In this document: one piece after another, positions 5,722 through 53,783 of the stretch
How the letters are laid out: the number at the start of each line of letters is the position of its first letter
Position numbering within the stretch: the first letter of the stretch is position 1
NCBI GenBank assembly: GCA_951406725.2
Contig: OX597823.1
Location: forward strand, 87,048,001-87,112,000
Reading direction: 5' to 3'
Length of the DNA stretch: 64,000 bases
Source of the DNA: Octopus vulgaris
Lineage: Eukaryota
Position numbers and translations under genes: made by a program
The notes under the pieces: generated by a model
Told to the model about the DNA's origin: nothing
Databases searched by the model: none
What the model saw: only the letters and a program-made list of their open reading frames with translations

Positions 5722-5723
<2 letters not shown>

Positions 5724-6013
5724 GGCGGCGAACTGGCAGAAACGTTAGCACGCCGGGGCGAAATAGTGGTATTTCGTCTGCCGCTACGTTCTGTGTTCAA
5801 ATTCCGCCGAGGTCGACTTTGCCTATCATCCTTTCGGGGTCGATTAAATAAGTACCAGTTACGCACTGGGGTCAATGTAATCGACTTAATCCGTTTGTCT
5901 GTCCTTGTTTTTCTTCTCTGTGTTTAGCCCCTTGTGTGTAGAAAAGAAATAGGAAATGATATTTCGTCCGTCTTTACGTTCTAAGTTCAAATACCGCCGA
6001 GGTCGATGTTGCC
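5722..6013 (+). mobile_element. SINE family A (head aaggcggcgagctggcagaa, body gttcaaattccgccgaggtcgactttgcc, tail type 1) followed by a second partial body
   Basis: Near-identical to copies at 15437, 16080, 18659, 20081; B-box-like GTTCAAATTCC. Confidence 0.9.
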
Positions 6014-7095: not shown

Positions 7096-7937
7096 CGAGG
7101 GTGAGTCAAAAAATAATGCCATTTTGTTTAGGACAGGTATAATTACCAGCACAGGAACATGTATCATACATCAAAGTGAAGCTGGTCTTCTGTTGATCAC
7201 ATCCCCACTCCTCAACATGGTCACTGTTTCTCTCAATAGCAATGTTCTACCTTCGAATGAGAACATGTATCCCTGTCACTTCTTCACAACAGTTTTCACT
7301 TCCTCGTCACTGGAATAATATTTGCCTCTTAAACCCTCTTTCATGGGGCCGAAGAGATGACCCTGTCAGTCTTGCGATCAGTAGTCGGCTCTCTCGGTAC
7401 CCAACGGGCACACACAATTTTTGAAAAGCCAAGTGATTCAACAATGTTGTAAGCACTTCCATGGCCAACGTCAAGGTTTTCTGCCAACTCATGAAGTGTT
7501 ATACGCCTGTCTTCTCTGATCAGAGCATCTGCTTTTGCTTTATTGGCAGGATTCACAGAAGCGGACGGACGGCCAGAACGGGGTTTATCGGGTACACTCA
7601 CAGTTCTCACCTTTTCGTCTTTCAGACGACCGATCCACCTCCATACATTGCTATGATCTAAAGTATTATCTTCAAAGACATTTTGTAATCGTCGGTGAAT
7701 GCACACAGGGGTTTCCTCCTAAGCAACAAGAAAGTCAATCACTGATCTTTGTTTTTGACGTAACTTTAAGGAGGCAGCCATTTTAAAATTTTCCTTACCA
7801 GTCTAAAAACCTGAAAAGTAAGAAACAAAATATTTCAGAACGTATATGATATAATCATTTATAACTGGGAAAAGTTTTAGTTATTTTTATCAAAACTTCA
7901 CATAAAATAAATGGTATTGCTTTTTGACTCACCCTCG
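7096..7937 (-). mobile_element. Internally deleted mariner element
   Basis: TA|CGAGGGTGAGTCAAAA...TTTTGACTCACCCTCG|TA TIRs; ORF 7341-7706 has the mariner HTH region (PRSGRP, IREDRRIT..ELA) and CARWVPR motif; catalytic DDD region missing. Confidence 0.92.
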
Positions 7938-14398: not shown

Positions 14399-14587
14399 CG
14401 TCTTCATCATCCAGCTCCCCCTCCTCGTCCTCCTCGCTTTCCTAAACATTATCATCATGATCGTCGTCTCTGATAGCATCGTAGTCGCCGCTGCCGTCAC
14501 CGTCGTCATAGTCGTCGTCGTCGTCATCAGCGCTGTATTCATAGTCATTGTCAAGGAAACAAGAAAAAGGCTCTTGACGTAAATAAG

Positions 14588-15325
14588 TATTTCAATTTTT
14601 TGCCACAAGCGCAGTTTGAGGGAGGAGGAGATGAGTAGATTAGATCGATCCCCAGTGCTCAACTGGTAATTATTTTATCAATTCTGAAAGGTTGAAAGGA
14701 AAACCGACCTCGGCGGAATTTGAACTCATTTTAAATTGATATTTTCTACTCAAGGCACACGGCCCGAAATATTGTGGTAGGGGCCAGTCGATTAGATCGA
14801 CCGCAGTACGAAACTAGTATTTAATTTATGGACCCAGAAAGGATAAAAGGGCAAAGTCTACCTCGGCGGAATTTGAACTCAGGGCGTAGCGGCACACAAA
14901 ATACCGCTAAGCGTTTCGGCCAGCGTGCTAACGATTCTTTTCTAGTCTAGGAAATTTTGGGCGATGGGGCTAGTCAATTAGATCGACACCAGTATGCAAC
15001 ATGTACTTTATTTAACGGCTCTGAAAGGATGAAAGGCAAAGTCGACCTCGGCGGAATTCGAACTCAGAACGTAACGGCAGACGAAATACCTATTTCTATT
15101 TCTTTACTACCCACAAGGTGCTAAACACAGAGAAGACAAACAAGGCAGACAAACGGATTAAGTCGATTATATTGACCCCAGTGCGTAACTGTTACTTATT
15201 TAATCGACCCCGAAAGGATGAAAGGCAAAATCGACTTCGGTGGAATTTGAACTCAGAACGTAAGGGCAGACGAAATACCGCTAAGCATTTCGCCGGGCTA
15301 AAGATTCTGCAAGCACACCGCCTTT
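14588..15325 (-). mobile_element. Cluster of tandem SINE family A copies
   Basis: Four repeats of gac(c/t)tcgg(c/t)ggaatt(t/c)gaactca; tail 1 reversed at 15090-15165. Confidence 0.88.
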
Positions 15326-15344
15326 GTTGATGTAACTAATTATT

Positions 15345-15810
15345 TCAAGTTTTGGCAAAAGAGCAACAAGTTCAGAAGAGCTGGTAAGTTGATTACATCG
15401 AACGAAGTGTTCAACAGATATTTATTTTATCGAGCTGAAGGCGGCGAGCTGGCAGAAACGTTAGCACGCCGGGCGAAATGCTTAGCAGTATTTCGTCTGC
15501 GTTACGTTGTGAGTTCAAATTCCGCCGAGGTCGACTTTGCCTTTCATCCTTTCGGGGTCGATAAATTAAGTACCAGTTACGCACTGGGGTCGATTTAATC
15601 GACTTAATACCTATGTCTGTCCTTGTTTGTCCCCTCTGTGTTTAGCCCCTTGTGGGTAATAAAGAAATAGGTATTTATTTTATCGAGCTCGAGAAGATGA
15701 AAAGCAAAGTCGAGTCGGCAGAATTTGAACTCAGAACATAAAGACTAGCAGCAACATGCCGTTAAGTATTTTGCCCAGCGTAATATTGGTTCTGCATGTT
15801 CGCCGACTTC
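15345..15810 (-). mobile_element. Old SINE family A copy split by a younger insertion
   Basis: Reverse-strand family A sequence continues on both sides of 15437-15671. Confidence 0.75.
15437..15671 (+). mobile_element. Full-length SINE family A with 18-bp target site duplication
   Basis: tatttattttatcgagct at 15419-15436 and 15672-15689. Confidence 0.95.
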
Positions 15811-16079
15811 GTTCATGTAGATATTGAAATCATACACATAAAAATTAACACCCGTTTGAAGATAATGTGTGACAGAATAGAAACGGCGTAGTATCACCAA
15901 AGACGCCCTGTTTGTGCACGCGCGTTTGTGTGTAACTGAGTATGTAGTTTAATAAGGATACATATTGCAACAAGCAATTATGTAATGCTGGCAGTTAATT
16001 TAACGAAACGCGTGTATGTCTTATAAAGCATAAAATATACTCTGTTTTCCGTATTTCATTAATACTATAAAAGTGTGTC

Positions 16080-16480
16080 AAGGCAGCGACCTGGCAGAAT
16101 AGTTAGCACGACGGGCGAAATGCTTAGCAGTATTTTATCTGACTTTACGTTCTGAGTTCAAATTCCGCCGAGGTCGACTTTGCCTTTCATCCTTTCGGGG
16201 TCGAAAAATTAAGTACCAGTTACGCACTGGGGTCGTTGTTATCGACTTAATCCGTTTGTCTGTCCTTGTTTGTCCTTTCTGTGTTTTTAGCCCCTTGTGG
16301 GTAGTAAAGAAATAGGTATTTCGTTTGTCGTTATGTTCTGAGCTCAAATTCCGCCGAGGTCGACTTTGCTTTTCATCCTTTCGGGATCGATAAATTACGT
16401 ACCAGTTGCGTACTAGGGTCGATCTAATCGACTGGCCCCTTCCTCATAAAAAATCGGTCCTTGTGCCTAGAGTAGAAAAG
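16080..16480 (+). mobile_element. SINE family A dimer (head-body-tail1-body-tail2)
   Basis: Body repeated after aaagaaatag|gtatttcg junction near 16315. Confidence 0.9.
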
Positions 16481-16747
16481 AATATTATAAAAGTGTGTGT
16501 TAAATAAATTGAGACAACAACTCTAAGGTACTGTGAAATTTCTAGAACATTATATAAAGAGAAAGCTGTTTCACGGATATAAAAGATGTCCCATCATCAG
16601 AGACGATATGTGAGATTTAGATAGAACGAAATAGTCGAACTTATCTTGGAAAGGGGGAGATGTAGGAATATAAAAGGTAAAACATTTCAAAAACATTTTA
16701 TCAGTGACCAGCATACCAAAAGACCTCATAAGGTGAAAATTACAATC

Positions 16748-16868
16748 AATTATAAATAAGGGCAAAGGAAAAAAAATTTTCTCTGCCAATATTCTGAAAA
16801 ACAGACTTTAGACTTTTTCTCGGAATATTGGTAAAGAATTTTTTTTTCTTTTGCCCTTATTTATAATT
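16748..16868. repeat. ~120-bp foldback (two ~54-bp inverted arms), MITE-like
   Basis: aattataaataagggcaaa...ccaatattc / gaatattgg...tttgcccttatttataatt. Confidence 0.8.
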
Positions 16869-17064
16869 TTATAGATATAGTTCACTGTTCTATTGTAGGT
16901 AGGAAATCAACAGGAAAATTATTTCATCCTTGAGAGATAAATATCTCTTAATGACCGAATAAGATCGGCAGATTTATATAACCTCCTTTGCGTCTCCAAT
17001 AAATTTTAACCATGTTTTTATAGCAAGGAACTATTAGTGTCTCTTATTATACTACTGCGTACAT

Positions 17065-17416
17065 TAAATTTTGTGGGAGGGGCAGTCGATTAGATCGACC
17101 CCAGTACACAACTGGAACTTAATTCATCGATCCCGGAAGGATGAAAGGTAAAGACGACCTCGGTGGAATTTGAACTCAGAACGTAGTGGCAGACGAAATA
17201 CCTATTTCTTTACTGCCCACAAGGGGCTAAACACAGAGAGGACAAACAAGGACAGACAAACGGATTAAGTCGATTATATCGACCCCAGTGCGTAACTGGT
17301 AACTTATTTTATCGACCCCGAAATGATGAAAGGCAAAGTCGACCTCGGCTGAATTTGAACTCAGAACGTAATGGCAGACGAAATACCGCTAAGCGTTTCT
17401 GCCACCTCGCTGCCTT
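17065..17416 (-). mobile_element. SINE family A dimer
   Basis: Reverse-strand head-body-tail1-body-tail structure. Confidence 0.9.
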
Positions 17417-18658
17417 CGGACAAGCGAAAGAATGTGATATTCAACACATTTCGTAGCAGTGTATTTATAAATAAAGCCAACATATAATAAACAAAAACAG
17501 TCGCAATGTTTAAGAAATGAATAGGAAACATTAATACAGAAAGGAAACAGCAAAGAAAAGTGAAAAATTTTAATGAAATATTGTAATAAGGAACGAAAGA
17601 CAAGGTTTGAGAAATACAGACTGAAGGGAAAATGGATGATAAAAATACGAATGAGAAGATCAAGATAAGATATAGATGCAAATCTTCACGCAATTGTAAT
17701 ACCAGGCAATTTAATAATAATGAAAGTGTCTTTTAATGTAATGGAGAGTCTCAAAGAATTCCTAAATATCATTGAATATAATATTGAATAAGTCAACAAT
17801 GGAGAGAACGGAATCACCAACGAAACTGAGATAAAGACAATTTAAACGGCTTACATTGGTAAGAAATATCTGTCACAACAGCTTGATATTATGGATTACA
17901 AACGAATCTTAAGAATAGAATACAATGACTGTGTATGAAAGCTGAGATATACCAACAAAAAAATGTGACCAAATTAATACAGCTATGAAGGAGATGGCTT
18001 GTTCGTGATCATACGACCAACTACAAATATCAGCAAATATCCTACGAAGCTGTACAATACTACCTTAAATAAAATAAAGGATATGTTCGATGTTGTTATA
18101 TACTGCCATCGAAAACTACGAAATATCTAAAGCCGGCACGCTTTGCCAAGCGATAACTTATTAAGCAATAACGTTACAGGGCAAAAATTCTGGCTAAAAA
18201 GATGCATAGAGAGATCCTTGAAATGGTATTTGGCAGCCTATGAGACCACAAATAGCACTAAGTCCATTATTTGAAGTCATGAAGAATGTCTGTTTGAAAT
18301 AAATTTAAGAAATATTACATGGCTTTTATTTTCTTCCGACTGTAAAGCATTTACTTTGCTGATGTTTAGATCCATACAACCAAGATTAAAGAAGCCCATG
18401 TTTTAGAGGTCCGCTTATAAAATCCATGATGATCATCCGATTTTACTTTCAGACAAAGTATCTAGTAGTGTTATCTAAATTGTTGTTTTCCTATGTGTGT
18501 GAAAGGAAATTCAGTGAATTTTTCTTGAAGTTTTAGCAACCATATAAGAGATCCTTGTTTGCCTCGCAACAATTTGATACAGCCCAAAGGTTCGATATAT
18601 TGATTCTGCAAACCAACACACAAAGCCCAAAGATAGATAATAATATATTAATAAAGAT

Positions 18659-19270
18659 AAAGGTTGTGAGCTGGCAGAACCGATAGCACACCGGGCGAAA
18701 TGCTTAGTGGTATTTCATCTGCCCTTACGTTCTGAGTTCAAATTCCGCCGAGGTCGACCTTGCCTTTCATCTTTTTGGGGTCGATTAAATAAGTACCAGT
18801 TATGCATTGGAGTCGATATAATCGACCAAATCCATTTGTCTGTCCGTGTTTGTCCTCTCTGTGCTTAGACCTATGTGGGTAGTAAAGAAATAGGTATTTC
18901 GCCTTCCGTTTCGTTCTGAGTTCAAATTCCGGCGAGGTCGACTTTGCCTTTCATCCTTTCGGGGTCGATTAAATAAGTACCAGTTACGCACTGGGGTCGA
19001 TATAATCGACTTAATCCCTTTGTCTGTCCTTGTTTGTCCCCTCTGTGTGTAGCCCCTTGTAGGCAGTAAAGAAATAAGAATCGTTAGCACGCCGGACAAT
19101 ATGCTTGGCGATAGTTCGTCCGTCTTTCTGTTCTGAATTCAAATTCCGCTAAGCTCGACTTTACCTTTCATTCTTTAGGGGTCGATAAAAAAGTACCAGT
19201 TGAGCACTGGGATTGGTGTAATCAGCTTACCTCTCCCACGAAATTGCTGGCCTTGGGCCAAAATTTGAAT
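18659..19270 (+). mobile_element. SINE family A trimer (head-body-tail1-body-tail1-partial head-body-tail)
   Basis: Three bodies; junctions gaaatag|gtatttcg (~18893) and gaaataa|gaatcgttagc (~19077). Confidence 0.9.
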
Positions 19271-19599
19271 GCATATATTAGTAAAGCCAGTTGACACAAT
19301 AAGCCCATAGCTGGATGTTATTTCTGTTGCTTTATTAAGCACAGAGTGACGTAAAGTAAATTTGAAACCTGCGCAATCTTAGCTCAGGACATAAAGTAGA
19401 CAAATGATTATTCGTGTATATTCGTACTCATATGTCCTCGGACGTAAAAAAGATAATACTCACCACCAGGGTAGGACTATGGCCCCTCAGTTCAGAAGTT
19501 CCCTTCAGATTGTTTCTTAGGCAGATCTTCCATTCATCTTTGCCTTGTTAGACCTGTCACCATATTACTTCACTATCTTCGCTATCTTACACATTGTTG

Positions 19600-19728
19600 C
19601 TAAGAAACTGGGGCAATGTGGAATGAAGTGTCTTGTTGAAGCGTGCAACGCATTGCTCGGTTCAGGAATGAAACTACATTCTTCCTATCGTGATTGCAAC
19701 ACCTTTATAAGTAGGCCACATTCCTTCA
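19600..19728 (-). mobile_element. Degraded SINE family D 5' part
   Basis: gaaactgg..caatgtggaatgaagtgtcttgttgaag is the reverse of the family D centre. Confidence 0.5.
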
Positions 19729-20080
19729 ACTACATTAAGTTGCAGATAGTAAATGGAGTTTTATTAGGAAATACAAAGGTGGTTTTTCGCGGCCCTCCGC
19801 GGGAGACGTGATTTGTTGGAATATGCCATCGTGTTAGATGTAGCCATGGTCAGTTCTGAAATAATGAAAGTGTGCGTGTGTGTGTGTGTGTGTAAGAGAG
19901 AGAGTGAGAGAGAGAGAGAGAGAGAGGGAAAGAAAGGGAGAGAGAAGAGAGAGGAGAAAGAGAAAGAATGGAAGAGAGAAATGGAGATTGCTGTATATTT
20001 ATGGTTGTCTATCGAATTCGAAATTATAAAGAGGCAAATGTTTGAACTCAGAGATCACAGTGCTTGATAGTCATATATAC

Positions 20081-20297
20081 AAGGCGGCGAGCTGGCAGAA
20101 CCGTTAGCAGGCCAGGCGAAATGCGTAGCCGTTTTTCGTTTGCCGTTACGTTCTGAGTTCAAATTCCGCCGAGATCGACTTTCGGGGTCGATAAAATAAG
20201 TACCAGTTACGCACTGGGGTCGATGTAATCGACTTAATTCGTTTGTTTGTCCTTGTTTGTCCCTGCTATGTTTAGCCCCTTGTGGGTAATAAAGAAA
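20081..20297 (+). mobile_element. SINE family A, tail type 1, small internal deletion
   Basis: Head through aaagaaa tail. Confidence 0.9.
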
Positions 20298-21049
20298 CAT
20301 ATACAATAGTCCTGTATCCATTATACTAACAACTCCGTCTCTTTTTCCGTTTTATTGTCCATGATGGTCTATTTTATCCAATGCATCCTACTTTTCCTTG
20401 AAAGGTTGTTTTTGAGGAAGATCTAATCCAAACCATAATTTAGGTTTCGTGTTAAACACTGGCAGGATTTCTACCCGTAAAATTAATGGTCGTCAAACAA
20501 CTTAAAAAAAAAAAATAACCGAAATTTTTCTGGAGATGATAAGTTAGTAGTTAGCATTTCACTTTCAATGTAATTATTCCACTTAGATTGTAATACAGGA
20601 CTCCAACACCCTAAACTCTTAACCATGTGCCTCCAACTGCTCGTAAGTATTTGAATATACATATTTGTAAGCGTATTCACATGAATTCGTATCGCAACTA
20701 GGTGAGTGACACAGCTACACTGGAAGTGCAATCTATCCAAGAATGGTGAATTTCTACGCAATCTATTATGGCTTTCATAATTTCTAAATCTTAAAACCGT
20801 CACATTTACTTACCTAAATTTTATCTTCTAACATCAAAACAAGTGATGTATTAAAATTTATAGTTCATCTTTCTGTACCCCTAGGTTAAACTGATAAAAG
20901 AAATTGCCGATGAATCGAAAAAGTATTGAATTATAGAGAAGGAAGTGGTGTAGTAAAAGTGAGACGAGAAGTGAGACAGAGATAAGACACATAAATGGAT
21001 AAAGAGAAGCTAATAGAGAAAGTGGATAGGCAAATATATAGATTAAATA

Positions 21050-24971: not shown

Positions 24972-25121
24972 ATATATATATATATATATATGTGTGTGTA
25001 TGTATGTATGTGTGTGTGTATGGGTGTGTATGTATAGGTTATATATATATATATGCATATATATATACATATATATATAATATATGTGTGCGTGTGTGTG
25101 TATGTTTGTATGTTTGTATAT

Positions 25122-26140
25122 ATTGGGCCCGCTCCTCTTTATAATTTACATAAACGACATTTCCAGCTTTGTAACTCACTGCAAAAGGAAAATATTTACT
25201 GATGACACTAAGCTCCAGAAAATTATCAATGAAGATGAAGAACGAACTCAACTCCAGTCTGATCTATATGCTGCGAGTCAATGGGCAGACAGAAACAAAA
25301 TGCAACTGAACGTGGGAAAATTTGAGCTGATGCATTTTGGAAAACAGCCATACTCTCTTCATTCAGGGGAACCGCTCACGGCATCTAACAATATCAGAGA
25401 CCTGTGCGTAATTGTTGATAACAATCTCAGTTGGAGTACTCACATCAACAAATAAGGGCGATATAGCTCGTAGGATGAGCTCCTGGATCTTATGAACCTT
25501 CCGGTCCAGAGAAAAAGGTGTCATCATTCCACTTTTCTCCTCCTTTGTACGGCCACACCTCGAATACTGCTGCCCCTTGTGGTCTCCCCATACAAAACAA
25601 AGCATCTTGAAAATTGAATCACCGCAATGGGCACTCACTAAACGAATTGAAGGCGTGACTGATCTCGATTACTGAGACCACCGTAAAGCCTTGAAACTCT
25701 ACTCCATCGAGCGTCGCCACGAGCGGTACATCATTTGAACGATATGGAGAATATACCGCCCGCATTGCTCAAACGACCTGAACATTAGTTTCAAGGCTGG
25801 GACCACAGGGCCATACGTCCCCTGCCCAATTCAGGATCACAATATATAGGTACACTGCGACACAATTTCTTTTTCTCAACAGACCCTGCCCAGTTTAACA
25901 TTGTCCCAAAACGGATCAAAGAGGAAAAGAATCCTATGACCTTTAAACGTAGTCTGGACAGATTTCTTCAAGGGATACCAGACAAGCTACCCATACCTGG
26001 ATACAACTCACTCAACAAGAACTCACTACTTGAATGAACTGTAAGCAAAACTTGACTTTAAAAGGATTTAGATAATTCTATCAGGTGGTACTATTAAGTT
26101 AGACATGGCCTGGACCAATGTTTGGTCGAAATATATCTAA
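25122..26140 (+). mobile_element. 5'-truncated CR1-type LINE, RT C-terminal half, stops and frameshifts
   Basis: [13 protein letters not shown]...IFTDDTKL...LQSDL....WAD.NKMQLN..K...MHFG; downstream FVRPHLEYCCPLWSPH....I..IES.Q. Confidence 0.9.
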
Positions 26141-30957: not shown

Positions 30958-32385
<1,428 letters not shown>

Positions 32386-36760: not shown

Positions 36761-36987
36761 GGTGGGTGGGTGTATATGTTTGTGTGTCTGTGTTTGTCCC
36801 CCAACATCGCTTGATAACCGATGCTGGTGTGTTTACGTCCACGTAATTTAGCGGTTCGGCAAAAGAGATTGATAGAATAAGTACTAGGCTTACAAAGAAT
36901 AAGTCCTGGGGTGGATTTGCTCGACTAAAGGTGGTGCTCCAGCATGGCCGCAGTCAAATGACTGAAACAAGTCAAAAAGTAAAAGAG
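36570..36987 (+). mobile_element. Near full-length SINE family B, nested in the older copy
   Basis: taggcgtag..ttggctgtgtggtaag head, centre, (TA)(TG) spacer, tail aaaagtaaaagag. Confidence 0.9.
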
Positions 36988-47902: not shown

Positions 47903-48064
47903 TGTGTATACATGTATATTGGTATGCATATATGTGTGTATGCATGTATACATATATATGTATGTATGTATGTATGTATTCATACATGTATGTATGCAAG
48001 CGTGTACGTATGTATGTATGCATGTAAGCATATATGTAAATGTATATATATGTATGTGTGTATA

Positions 48065-48441
48065 TTCTTTTATTTGTTTCACTCACTTGACTGCGGCCAT
48101 AAAGGAGCACCGCCTTTAGTTGACCAAATCTACCCCAGGACTTATTCGTTTTGAGCCTAGTACTTATTCTATCGGTTTCTTTTGCCGAACTGCTAAGTTA
48201 CGGGAACGTAGACACTCCACCATCGGTTGTCAAGCGATGGTGGGCGAACAAACACTGACACAAATACACAAAAACACGTACACACACACGCACATATATA
48301 CGACGAGCTTCTATTAGTTTCCGTCTACCGAATCCAATCACAAGGCTTTGGTCGGCCCGAGGCTATAGTAGAAGACACTTGCCCAATGTGCCACTCAGTG
48401 GGACTGAACCCGGGACCTTGTGATTGGTAAGCAAGCTACTT
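48065..48441 (-). mobile_element. SINE family B whose head is interrupted by the LINE; remainder of head at 51165-51183
   Basis: ...ggtaagcaagctact| LINE |acagccattcttgtacctg reconstitutes the reverse family B head. Confidence 0.88.
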
Positions 48442-51147
48442 TATTTCATATAATTTGCCATTTAGGCATTTACAAAGTGGGGACAAACAAGAACAGACAA
48501 ATATAAAGGGTGAAGTAGCTTAACACAGTTACAATTTTCGAATGAAATTACGGATAAGATTATAAACAATGAATTTTACGAAGGCAATGTTTAAAAATAT
48601 TAATGATCATGTCGAAGGACGGACACCCAGCCATCCGAGTAGAACCTTTACTTTCTGATTCGGTCACACTTACCTGGTGCCAAACGTACCCATCTTGTAT
48701 GCCACAGGCTTCCATCTTTTCACAAACATATCTCGTGACAGACACCTCTTCTCCAGCCTGATTTTGCTACTGAGGTGGTAACTAAAAAAGTTAATCAACC
48801 CCTGGCCGGAGACAAAGGTGCCTGTCACTATACCTTTCGTACGCTTCTTCCATACTGTTTCTTTCAGTAAGGCTACTACACAGAAAAAACAAGCCTTTCT
48901 TTCCCTGTTAAGGAAAGGGGGCGGCACAATCTCGATGATAGACTCAGCTGATAGCTGTACTCTTCCCATCACTGACAACAGTTGTTCAACAAAAGCTATC
49001 AGTCCCGATAACTCCGGATACTCCACGAATGCGTGCAAGACGGTCTCCCTATCCTGCTCACATCGCGGGCATGTTGGCGAGACGGCACTACCGTGCCTTG
49101 ACAGCTTGTCGCGAACAGGTAAAGCCGCACGGAAACACTGCCAGGCCAGGGATTTCTGGTAATTATCCAGATACCCCGGCCCGAACGTCCTCCGGAACAG
49201 GTTGACCAACTGATTTTCATCGTAGCCCAGGGTCTCCCCCAAGGCGTCTTCGGACTTAATCTCCACTAACCCGCTATAGAAATCCGTGGTGGAACTCCTG
49301 TTGCCGGCGTTGCCCACCCGAGATAGTAGCTGGAGCGCCTGACGGCACTCCAAATGCCATTCACTCAGTTTAGGTCTCCGCTTGATCCATGCACCGATGT
49401 CCGTTAGGGATGTTAACTGGGGAAGGTAGAACCGGACGTGCGGTGACCACACCTGCTCTCCATCCAGGTAAAGCCAGAGGTGCCTCAACCTTAACGCATC
49501 CTCAGCCAAGGCATCCCTAGCCCACCCTTTAGCGGTTTCTGGCAGCAGACAGAGCGCTTTACAAGTGGCTTTCCTCCTTTCCACAAAAATCGGAAAAGGA
49601 TTCTCTCCAACTTGTTCAGCCACAAATCGGGGCAAGGCACCACGGGCAGACGGTAGGTGGTTACTGATGCTATAAACATCTGCACCACCTCCGCCTTCCC
49701 TAGCAGGGATAACGCCCGCCCAGACCAGGTCTGGGTTAGAGCGGTCACCTTGTTGGCCACCTCACTCCAATTTGTCTCAATCTGGAGGTCTGGCCCGAAC
49801 CAGACTCCGAGCAGCTTAACAGGACCTTCCGTCCAACGCCCTACGACGTTATTGGAGGGAATCGGCTTGCCCCTCCAGGTGCCGAGTTGCAAACCGACCG
49901 ACTTGTCCTTGTTAACCTTTGCTCCTGCCACCGCCTCGTAGCTTTTGATGGCCTCTTCCACCACTGGAAGCTGGCCTTCGTCTGCCACGATGATGGAGGT
50001 GTCATCCGCATACGCCGTAGCTCCTCTTCCACACCATAGGTCATGCGGCGCGCCCCCTAGTGCCTCCAACTTCCGCAGCAAAGGCTCAAGAGCCAATACG
50101 TATAGGAGCGAGGACAGGGGACACCCTTGACGAACTGAACACTCGATCCTGAACGGCTTCGAAAAGGAACCGTTCACCTTGACTACAGACTCGATGTCGC
50201 TATACAAAGCAGCGATCCAACCTCGAAAGGTCGGGCCTAGGCCAGCCTCTCCGAGGACCGCCGCCAGGTACCGATGGTCGACCCTATCAAATGCTTTGGA
50301 CTGGTCTAAATGTACCAGTGCTCCCCCTGCGCCAGAAAGCTTCCCCACCCTCTCTAAGGAGTAGCGTATAAGGTGGAGATTGTCGTGGATCGTTCTGCCG
50401 GGGATAGCGCACGTTTGCGCTTCCCCGACAAGTTTGTCCACGACCCGCGCCAACCTTTTTGCTAGCACCTTGGCCAGAATCTTTAACTCTGTTTAACAGA
50501 GTTATGGGCCTGAAGTTCCCTATCTCGTCCCCCTTGTTCGGGTCCTTCCTGATCAACGTCACCGCCCCCCGGCTCGCAGACTTGGGAATTCTCCCATTCT
50601 GCTGCCAGTTGGCGTAGACGCTAGCCAGCAGGTGCCCGAACAAGTCTGGCATACTTCTATAAAATTCATAGGGCAGACCATCGAGACCCGGCGACTTCTC
50701 CCCGGGGCACTTGCCCAACACCTCGATTACTTCCTCGGCTGTGATTGACCCTTCACAGCACTCAGCCTCTCGTGTCGAGAGGCGCGGGCCACCAGACAGG
50801 AAGTCCCTAAGGGCCTCACCATGATCCAGCGTCCCGCACCTCCCGAACAACTCGGCGAAGTGCTTGTGAAGTGCCTCACACATCTCGTCCCGCTTCTTGA
50901 TCGTGCATCCGTTTTCATCAACAAGAGACCCAATTGTGGCATCGTTTCCACGCTGTGTTTCTATCGTACGGGCCCATCCGGCAACATTAATTCCCTCACG
51001 GCCCAATGCTCGTACTTTAGCCCGGACTCTACATCCCTCATGTTTGGTTTTGAGGTGACGGTCTAATGCCGTTCTCGCCGCTAAAATGTGAGATGCAGAG
51101 CCCAACCTCAACGCCTCCTCTAAGTTCTTAACTAGTTGCCCTTCTAT
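48442..51147 (-). mobile_element. 5'-truncated L1/Tx1-type LINE, ORF2 remnant with two frameshifts
   Basis: KSPGLDGLPYEFY, NFRPITLLN, HLDQSKAFDRV, SVRQGCPLS, AYADD, GVWFG, KGGLGMP, C-terminal CPRC...ETVLHAF knuckle across ORFs 50287-51111, 49491-50468, 48670-49635; no endonuclease domain or ORF1. Confidence 0.95.
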
Positions 51148-51180
51148 TTAAGAACTTAGAGGAGACAGCCATTCTTGTAC

Positions 51181-51246
<66 letters not shown>

Positions 51247-52857: not shown

Positions 52858-52971
52858 CCTATCTCTCCCTCTCGCCCTTTCTCAAGTTGCCATAAAAACA
52901 TGCCCCAACACAAACGCACATATATCATATATACATACATACACCCCACCACATACGCATATATATATATA

Positions 52972-53325
52972 CTCTTACTCTTTTACTTGTTTCAGTCATT
53001 TGACTGCGGCCATGCTGGAGCACCACCTTTAATCGAGCAACTCGACCCGGGACTTATTCTTTGTAAGCCAAGTACTTATTCTATCGGTCTCTTTTGCCGA
53101 ACCGCTAAGTGACGGGGATATGAACACACCAGCATCGGTTGTCAAGCAATACTAGGGGCACAAACACAGACACACAAACACACACACACATATATATACA
53201 TATACATATATACGACGGGCTTCTTTCAGTTTCCGTCTATCAAATCCACTCACAAGGCTTTGGTCGGCTCGAGGCTATAGTAGAAGACACTTGCCCAAGG
53301 TGCCACGCAGTGAGACTGAGCCCGA
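52972..53325 (-). mobile_element. SINE family B (young, head truncated)
   Basis: Close match to the other copies. Confidence 0.9.
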
Positions 53326-53359
53326 TGTATCATGCCTTTATGACAAATTTTTTGAATAA

Positions 53360-53722
53360 AGTAGCTTGCTTTCCAATCATATGGTTCTGGGTTCAGTCCC
53401 ACTGCGTGACACATTAGTCAAGTGTCTTCTACTATAGCCTCGGGCCGACCAAAGGCTTGTGAGTGGATTTGGTAGACGGAAACAGAAAGAAGACGTCTAA
53501 TATATGTATATATGTGTGTGTTTGTGTATGTTTGTGTGATTGAGTTTATCCCCCCCCCCCAGCATCGCTTGACAACCGATGTTGGTGTGTTTACGTCCCC
53601 GTACCTTAAAGGTTCGGCAAAAGAGACTAACAGAATAAGTTCTGGGGTCGATTTTTTCGTCTAAAGGCAGTGCTCCAGCATGGCCACAGTCAAATGACTG
53701 AAACAAGTAAAAGAGTAAAAGA

Positions 53723-53723
<1 letters not shown>
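53360..53723 (+). mobile_element. SINE family B, head-to-head with previous copy
   Basis: agtagcttgct...agtaaaagagtaaaagag. Confidence 0.9.

Positions 53724-53783
<60 letters not shown>

Follow-up and report, generated by a model that had tools for sequence, protein, structure and literature searches.

Which enzyme copies SINE A, an abundant octopus SINE family, is a question raised by one LINE copy in the 64,000-nt window (the whole stretch of repeat-rich animal DNA analysed here): the LINE and one of the three tail types of SINE A, tail 1, end alike. Shared SINE/LINE tails are in themselves a known phenomenon, and an earlier note on this DNA proposed that SINE A with tail 1 is mobilised by this LINE family or by a close relative. 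Our analysis upholds homology with a family of the L1/Tx1 group and suggests, from sequence comparison, a relative as the likely carrier; the exact family is probably not the carrier, as its insertion sites differ from those of tail 1. Our favoured reading, with a probability of roughly 0.6, is that tail 1 was captured from a Tx1 lineage and that a sister Tx1 family, reading a small terminal hairpin, likely copies it in trans; that SINE A tail 1 has a Tx1 carrier of any kind appears more probable still.

Table 1. Coordinates of the LINE, its target and the SINE A tail-1 copies in the window
Feature	Position	Strand	Remark
5′-truncated, frameshifted L1/Tx1-group LINE	48442..51147	-	RT, zf-RVT, 228-nt 3′ UTR
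17-nt inverted copy of LINE sequence at 5′ junction (fold-back)	51148..51164	-	
First ~17 nt of interrupted SINE B head (5′ flank)	51165..51181	-	
Rest of interrupted SINE B copy (3′ flank)	48063..48441	-	
9-nt perfect reverse complement of first 9 nt of downstream SINE B target	48513..48521	-	
U/G-rich 30-nt block common to SINE A tail 1	48472..48501	-	27/30; 29/30 with run-contig letters
Terminal hairpin, stem UGCC/GGCA, 5-nt loop	48456..48468	-	
GAAATA 3′ end, no poly(A), abutting SINE B directly	48442..48447	-	
27-nt stub of related LINE 3′ end, joining other SINE B copy (at 53359) at the same nucleotide	53332..53358	+	
Headless SINE A tail-1 unit, tail block 19019-19076	18893..19076	+	in three-unit stack 18660-~19270
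Solo SINE A, tail 1 plus few target letters, 17-18 bp target-site duplication	15438..15672	+	
SINE A tail-1 unit, then older tail-2 unit; 13-bp duplication around whole	16080..16485	+	
SINE A tail-1 unit, then tail-2 unit; stretch compared with run contigs	17050..17416	-	
Four-unit SINE A stack: tail 1, then three tail-2/3 units	14580..15324	-	
SINE A tail-1 unit, then degenerate SINE A body fragment	5722..6013	+	
Solo SINE A, tail 1 end in unique sequence; weak 8-nt flank match	20081..20299	+	

The LINE and its shared 3′ end

The LINE copy is dead. Its ORF2 remnant, split over three frames by comparison with P0001 and P0004, starts at about residue 310 of the 1153 in full-length relatives; the reverse transcriptase (RT) and zf-RVT domains are recognisable (PF00078, E 2.7e-23; PF13966, E 3.3e-7), ORF1 is absent, and the endonuclease (PF03372), present in relatives at 50-55% identity, has been lost by 5′ truncation. 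A perfect 17-nt inverted repeat at the truncated end (51115-51164) looks like a fold-back during 5′ joining.

The window RT is nearer to human L1 ORF2p (91-94 bits) than to R2 (43-49 bits), and it reaches 196-223 bits with five U2 snRNA-flanked elements (5 of 13 loci scanned), the last scores being slightly favoured because the U2-flanked segments were excised using the window RT as query. As Keno, a Tx1 family, targets U2 (PMC4494074), we read these elements as Keno-like. The closest named relative of the LINE RT is an Argonauta hians protein (62% identity), with which the window RT and P0001 form a group (0.999) in an 83-sequence RT tree; the tree contains no named reference, its deep support is weak, and it does not separate Tx1 from other L1-group lineages. 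Taken together, the sequences make it likely that the LINE belongs to the Tx1 clade.

Several neighbours and relatives were seen in passing. Tx1-type elements from unrelated metagenomes (L003, L006, L008, L009 and L015) are U2 snRNA-flanked and Keno-like, L006 with three U2 pieces; and P0003-P0080 from ENA assemblies form a large full-length relative group at ~50-55% RT identity, with clusters of up to 732 members. The window itself also holds a decayed RT fragment of another LINE (25081-26140, plus strand) that has a 3′ end of its own and, by eye, is CR1/L2-like (RVT_1 E 3e-4, below the cut-off), and two minus-strand transposase fragments, Mariner/Tc1-like by eye, at 7341-7718 (HTH_32 below the cut-off) and 31653-32138 (no Pfam match).

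The earlier description of the shared end proved accurate: LINE positions 48501-48479 (minus strand) and tail 1 at 19019-19041 agree at 22 of 23 letters, GAAATA follows the 23-mer 31 nt downstream in the LINE and 29 nt downstream in tail 1, and both ends are without poly(A). The window holds eight tail-1 copies, of which the one at 19019 matches the LINE 23-mer best; the others match it at 19-21 of 23 letters, except a copy with a 1-nt deletion (12/23 ungapped). Over its last 60 nt the LINE is colinear with tail 1 at 19019, with 27 of 30 letters identical and then ~15 of 30. The seven tail-1 copies without an indel in the motif behave alike: the first half is identical to the LINE at 24-27 of 30 letters, the second, with ~50-55% identity, at 14-17 of 30-31 columns.

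Chance similarity between T/G-rich sequences, the alternative that the earlier note had named, is largely refuted. Local alignment of the 228-nt UTR with tail 1 scores 45, whereas shuffled UTRs reach at most 28 and shuffled tails at most 41 (0 of 2000 at 45 in either case); for the second tail half alone, between 5 and 70 of 2000 shuffles reach the real score, according to the copy used. Among 1120 real windows of 228 nt, only the 16 that contain tail 1 outscore the 2 that contain the LINE UTR. The downstream regions of distant L1/Tx1 relatives score at most 21 (n = 23; the other members of a set of 80 loci had no usable region behind the stop codon, and, some anchors being weak, not all 23 are true UTRs), and the relatives' loci taken anywhere at most 32 (80 loci, 373,311 nt); these control relatives came from a metagenome scan and are distant (27-54% identity over the best segment). 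The motif thus exceeds the chance level given by UTR shuffles and by the relatives' downstream regions, and it has 0 matches in viral contigs and 0 in prokaryote genome contigs. What chance has in its favour is the TG-microsatellite region of SINE B, which scores 28-35 against the same tail and provides the next-best windows (35 and 31) as a look-alike in mid SINE B; against it stand, besides the shuffles and the controls at 21-32, the equal distance of the motif from the same end in both elements and run-contig letters that bring the LINE nearer to the SINE. We consider chance very improbable.

The look-alike itself (20 of 23 letters of the motif) stands at the end of the TG microsatellite in the middle of SINE B at 36779, 52006 and 55840; as a tail it was rejected, being internal and within the microsatellite. 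The own tail of SINE B was likewise rejected as Tx1-related (score 15). By eye, there is also a resemblance between the right half of SINE B and the final part of the SINE A body.

Contigs of public sequencing runs place the motif in the LINE family and not in one copy only. Contigs at depth 5404 (run X14) and 3409 (run X16) span 48479-48583 with one letter different, so that motif and UTR run on without a break in these deep family contigs; many other contig pieces listed have depths of ~50-60, and depth is no copy number. A single X1 contig over 48472-48646 differs by three letters and has the SINE letters at 48478 and 48492, which raises the identity of the shared block to 29 of 30. The possibility that the motif is missing from the family end, raised in the earlier note, is not borne out by these contigs, and a decayed SINE tail lying by chance behind one LINE copy was rejected on the same contigs. 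The copy in the window differs by ~1-3% from the family contigs, a figure for one copy and not an age profile.

Sister elements tell a different story about the block. Loose ends behind 48468 (five contigs in X7, four in X1) keep the terminal part of the LINE and lack the 23-mer and the block, and a joint of 48477-48536 in X16 comes from a sister element without the block and with the terminal part kept, in one contig that may reflect a deletion. Given these contigs, the block was possibly gained by the LINE family rather than inherited. A reverse transfer would go further: the LINE would have taken the 30-nt block from the SINE by template switch or gene conversion, and another LINE would move the SINE. 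The mosaic of identity (27-29 of 30 in the block vs. ~15 of 30 behind it), the sister contigs that pass from a target-complementary segment straight to the terminal part, and the far greater abundance of the SINE (117,585-125,670 run contigs placed on the tail-1 stretch) are in keeping with it. However, it requires a double switch, the X16 joint that it draws on is the single contig just mentioned, and it leaves unexplained why the LINE and tail 1 agree in hairpin, loop, spacing and GAAATA end, features that are partly present in tails 2 and 3 as well. We regard a reverse transfer as quite unlikely.

A terminal hairpin with a changing stem

Near their ends, the LINE and all three SINE A tail types have kept a stem of 4 bp around a 5-nt loop: stems UGCC/GGCA, GCCC/GGGY, GGGC/GCCY and UGGC/GCCA surround a YUURU-type loop, and between the LINE and tail 1 two stem pairs are identical and two are changed on both sides. 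In the run contigs two letters of the LINE loop differ, giving the loop of the stub at 53332. We aligned 18 ends on the loop (2 LINE, 8 tail 1 and 8 tail 2/3). Of 64 stem cells, 84.4% are paired, vs. 57.4 ± 5.2 in shuffles (0/500) and 12-44% when the partner strand is slid; changes are two-sided in three of the four stem pairs, and covariation is 0.633 vs. 0.218 ± 0.066 (0/500), in a sample that amounts to about four related lineages and with a stem picked after the fact by script. Two of five shuffle measures do not rise above the control (442/500 and 431/500), all four stem pairs are intact in only four of the eight tail-1 copies, and folding energies are weak and mostly not unusual (z -2.1 to +0.5 in six tail folds). 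An Rfam search over the whole window returned mainly microsatellite-driven miRNA matches, all 150 listed lying below gathering scores. A long stem built by the 23-mer was rejected, as its register differs between the LINE and SINE folds.

The sister contigs and tails 2 and 3 keep the hairpin or the terminal part without the 23-mer; the conserved signal therefore looks more like the hairpin than the 23-mer that had first drawn attention. In L2 systems the loop of the 3′ stem-loop carries specificity and the stems can be swapped (PMC4176376), which fits the kept loop and changed stem of the LINE and SINE A tails.

Insertion sites and the carrier of tail 1

The LINE interrupts a SINE B head, which continues right after the GAAATA of the LINE; ~5 nt of the target are lost and there is no target-site duplication. 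Both LINE ends in the window, a small number, lie at one SINE B base (2/2; 51181-48063 on the minus strand and 53332-53724 on the plus strand). Between the two host SINE B copies, 23 of 142 sites differ and two variants are shared; in spite of the latter, the divergence of the hosts led us to reject the stub at 53332 as a recent local duplicate. Among the run contigs listed, record 17 of X16 bridges the LINE/SINE B junction with at least 31 letters on each side and several others touch it, and in record 18 the LINE end continues into non-SINE-B sequence. A target preference for another repeat is common in the Tx1 clade (PMC4494074), and two LINE-type ends at SINE B heads are probably the mark of a SINE-targeting Tx1 family. 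The UTR also contains a 9-nt complement of its own target (Table 1), a length that 16 of 3000 UTR shuffles reach; sister loose ends have, by eye, similar target-complementary segments, some crossing the insertion point. The second SINE B site lies in a head-to-head SINE B pair (52960-53724) whose copies are separated by no more than the LINE stub and 7 nt, possibly a deletion between inverted repeats.

Tail-1 copies sit elsewhere. Five of the eight pass into a SINE A body, with the joint at or near GGTATTTC (three cleanly, one after a repeated GAAATA and one into a degenerate body); of the other three, one enters another point of a SINE A head, one ends in target letters with the 17-18 bp duplication and one in unique DNA. 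In the run contigs, at least 559 (X14) and at least 721 (X16) depart from the stretch directly behind GAAATA, with an agreement of 0.37-0.38 among their flanks, and in these two runs at least 238 + 149 and at least 278 do so 5-6 nt later; the flanks are mixed and AT-rich in all cases. With hundreds of contigs leaving after GAAATA, and with the duplication around the copy at 15438, tail 1 is a true 3′ end; as there is no depth step there, much of the SINE A family must continue into SINE A. Loose ends upstream of tail 1 in the run contigs revealed no partner LINE, SINE contigs having swamped the table.

Some features of these copies deserve mention in their own right. SINE A units are dense at 14580-20300, many of them stacked within 6 kb, and a minus-strand SINE A fragment right behind the duplication of the 15438 copy (15670-15795) forms an inverted pair with it. 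Many tail-1 copies stop 3-6 nt into a former target (GGTAT/T; 15664-15676 and run contigs), ends that resemble a short 3′ transduction marking a master copy nested in SINE A, and GAAATA is the reverse complement of TATTTC in the SINE A target. As to the origin of SINE A, ARAGORN found 0 tRNA genes and Rfam no tRNA match over 14500-20500; A- and B-box patterns give an A-like match in the heads of SINE A and SINE B and a B-box match only in SINE B. OR1 and OR2 are reportedly octopus SINE families published by Ohshima and Okada in 1994.

The stacks admit two histories. Tail 1 could for the most part be a passive leftover inside a dimeric master SINE that is primed from tail 2: the entries at or near GGTATTTC carry no duplicated head piece, a 13-bp duplication encloses one entire tail-1/tail-2 pair, and there is no depth step at the tail-1 end. 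Yet the units behind tail 1 are older than those that carry it, hundreds of contigs stop at tail 1 in mixed flanks, and junction points vary (19077). Pairwise differences are 9.4% among tail-1 bodies (28 pairs) vs. 15.8% among the tail-2 bodies directly behind them (3 pairs, which may mix subfamilies). In nested copies (n = 4, one further copy with a deleted head being omitted), 20 of 188 head sites are off the majority vs. 45 of 735 in body plus tail (p 0.04), and in solo copies (n = 2) 4 of 98 vs. 24 of 353; nested vs. solo heads give p 0.07, short of significance. These small numbers speak rather for recurrent insertion into SINE A copies of greater age than for a dimeric master, which we place just below the reverse transfer in probability; under it a Tx1-like carrier would still be likely, since tail 2 has the same type of hairpin.

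Could the SINE B-targeting LINE family itself mobilise SINE A tail 1, the SINE escaping the target preference of the LINE? The 30-nt block, at 29 of 30 with the run letters, would suit this, and SINEU-1 and -2 show a target preference of 13-23% vs. 90% for SINEU-3 (PMC4494074). However, the SINE B site that holds both LINE ends holds none of the eight tail-1 copies (0/8), and, the insertion sites being so different, the exact family is probably not the carrier. SINE A tail 1 and the LINE do not share an insertion signature, and this counts against the exact family and not against a Tx1 relative. Moreover, no SINE B appears among the 12 loose-end rows listed, beside which 213 further rows exist; the stem and spacer of the LINE differ from those of tail 1; and the LINE lies ~1-3% from its family (one copy) vs. 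2.7-8.7% for the eight tail-1 units from their own majority. Mobilisation by the exact family is unlikely, if slightly less so than a reverse transfer.

We therefore return to capture from a Tx1 lineage and a sister family as carrier. By template switching, an ancestral SINE A would have acquired its 3′ end from a Tx1 relative. The ORF2p of the sister family would bind the terminal hairpin of tail-1 RNA, nick SINE A heads just before GGTATTTC and prime the RNA there, and the 5′ end would be joined by homology, leaving no duplicated head piece. Priming in older SINE A copies would build the apparent dimers and stacks; other tail-1 copies would have entered scattered AT-rich sites, producing target-site duplications. 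A sister family targeting SINE A was found neither in the 64,000-nt window nor in the run-contig data: its nicking of the SINE A head, like the Tx1 clade, the LINE-to-SINE direction and the recognition of the hairpin, is what we infer.

A broader version of this scheme is possible but doubtful. All three SINE A tails may have been captured one after another from a radiating clade of site-specific Tx1 elements that lack poly(A) and have a modular 3′ UTR, in which the hairpin, read by its shape, would license the RNA and a separate short target-complementary segment would help to pick the site; SINE A would ride a family that cuts its own head, which would make a feedback loop. If this is true, each new SINE A copy would be a new landing site, which could explain the octopus SINE explosion, and the octopus would provide an animal case of stringent recognition within the L1 group.

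Comparison with known SINE/LINE pairs

The earlier note had set stringent recognition, best known from CR1, L2 and RTE partners, against the relaxed mammalian L1. To this background must be added the stringent pairs of the L1 clade already known from maize/sorghum and Chlamydomonas (PMC3472496). In Ohshima's table of SINE/LINE pairs, L1-clade tails appear only in these organisms, namely ZmSINE2 and ZmSINE3 with LINE1-1_ZM, and SINEX-3_CR with L1-1_CR (PMC3472496, PMC3747384). The literature searched, as far as its accessible text goes, contains no octopus Tx1-SINE pair and no animal L1/Tx1-derived SINE tail; repeat databases could hold one. SINE families make up ~12% of an octopus genome (PMC13282606), and a likely carrier would be named for one family of this set. 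A poly(A)-less, hairpin-tailed animal Tx1 lineage with a passenger SINE would make an animal-side test possible, for which natural variants of the stem, and sister families that differ in target, would serve as swap constructs already at hand.

The octopus case resembles the maize and Chlamydomonas pairs, in which a tRNA-type SINE shares a 3′ end of ~50-80 nt with an L1-clade LINE, in the length of the shared end and in a hairpin whose stem has compensatory changes; there, too, stringent recognition was inferred from sequence (PMC3472496). It differs in its termini: L1-1_CR and SINEX-3_CR have a poly(A) end and the maize SINEs a (T)n end (PMC3472496), whereas the octopus elements, from an animal and probably of the Tx1 clade, have no terminal repeat, and insertion into SINE heads is site-specific.

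The crocodilian SINEU/Tx1-Mar system is similar in another respect: a SINE is inferred to use target-preferring Tx1 enzymes, inserting into another repeat with tandem stacks, target duplications and deletions (PMC4494074). SINEU, in contrast, combines snRNA heads with poly(A), and what is targeted is a Mariner DNA transposon, not a SINE head (PMC4494074). The link between SINEU and Tx1-Mar consists of target preference and 5′ heads; in the accessible text of that paper, no LINE with the 3′ end of SINEU-1 was found (PMC4494074).

With the L2 systems ZfL2-1, ZfL2-2 and UnaL2/UnaSINE, the octopus ends have in common a small 3′ stem-loop of which the loop is kept and the stem changed; those systems belong to the L2 clade and have tails ending in short repeats, and their recognition was demonstrated by experiment (PMC4176376), whereas recognition of the octopus hairpin is proposed from sequence. 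Finally, SINE A is like the conserved-domain SINEs of molluscs and cnidarians in having one body with several exchangeable tails, whereas the partners named for the latter in the accessible text are CR1, CR1-Zenon, L2 and Nimb, and not L1/Tx1 (PMC11481361, PMC4824008, PMC4758252).
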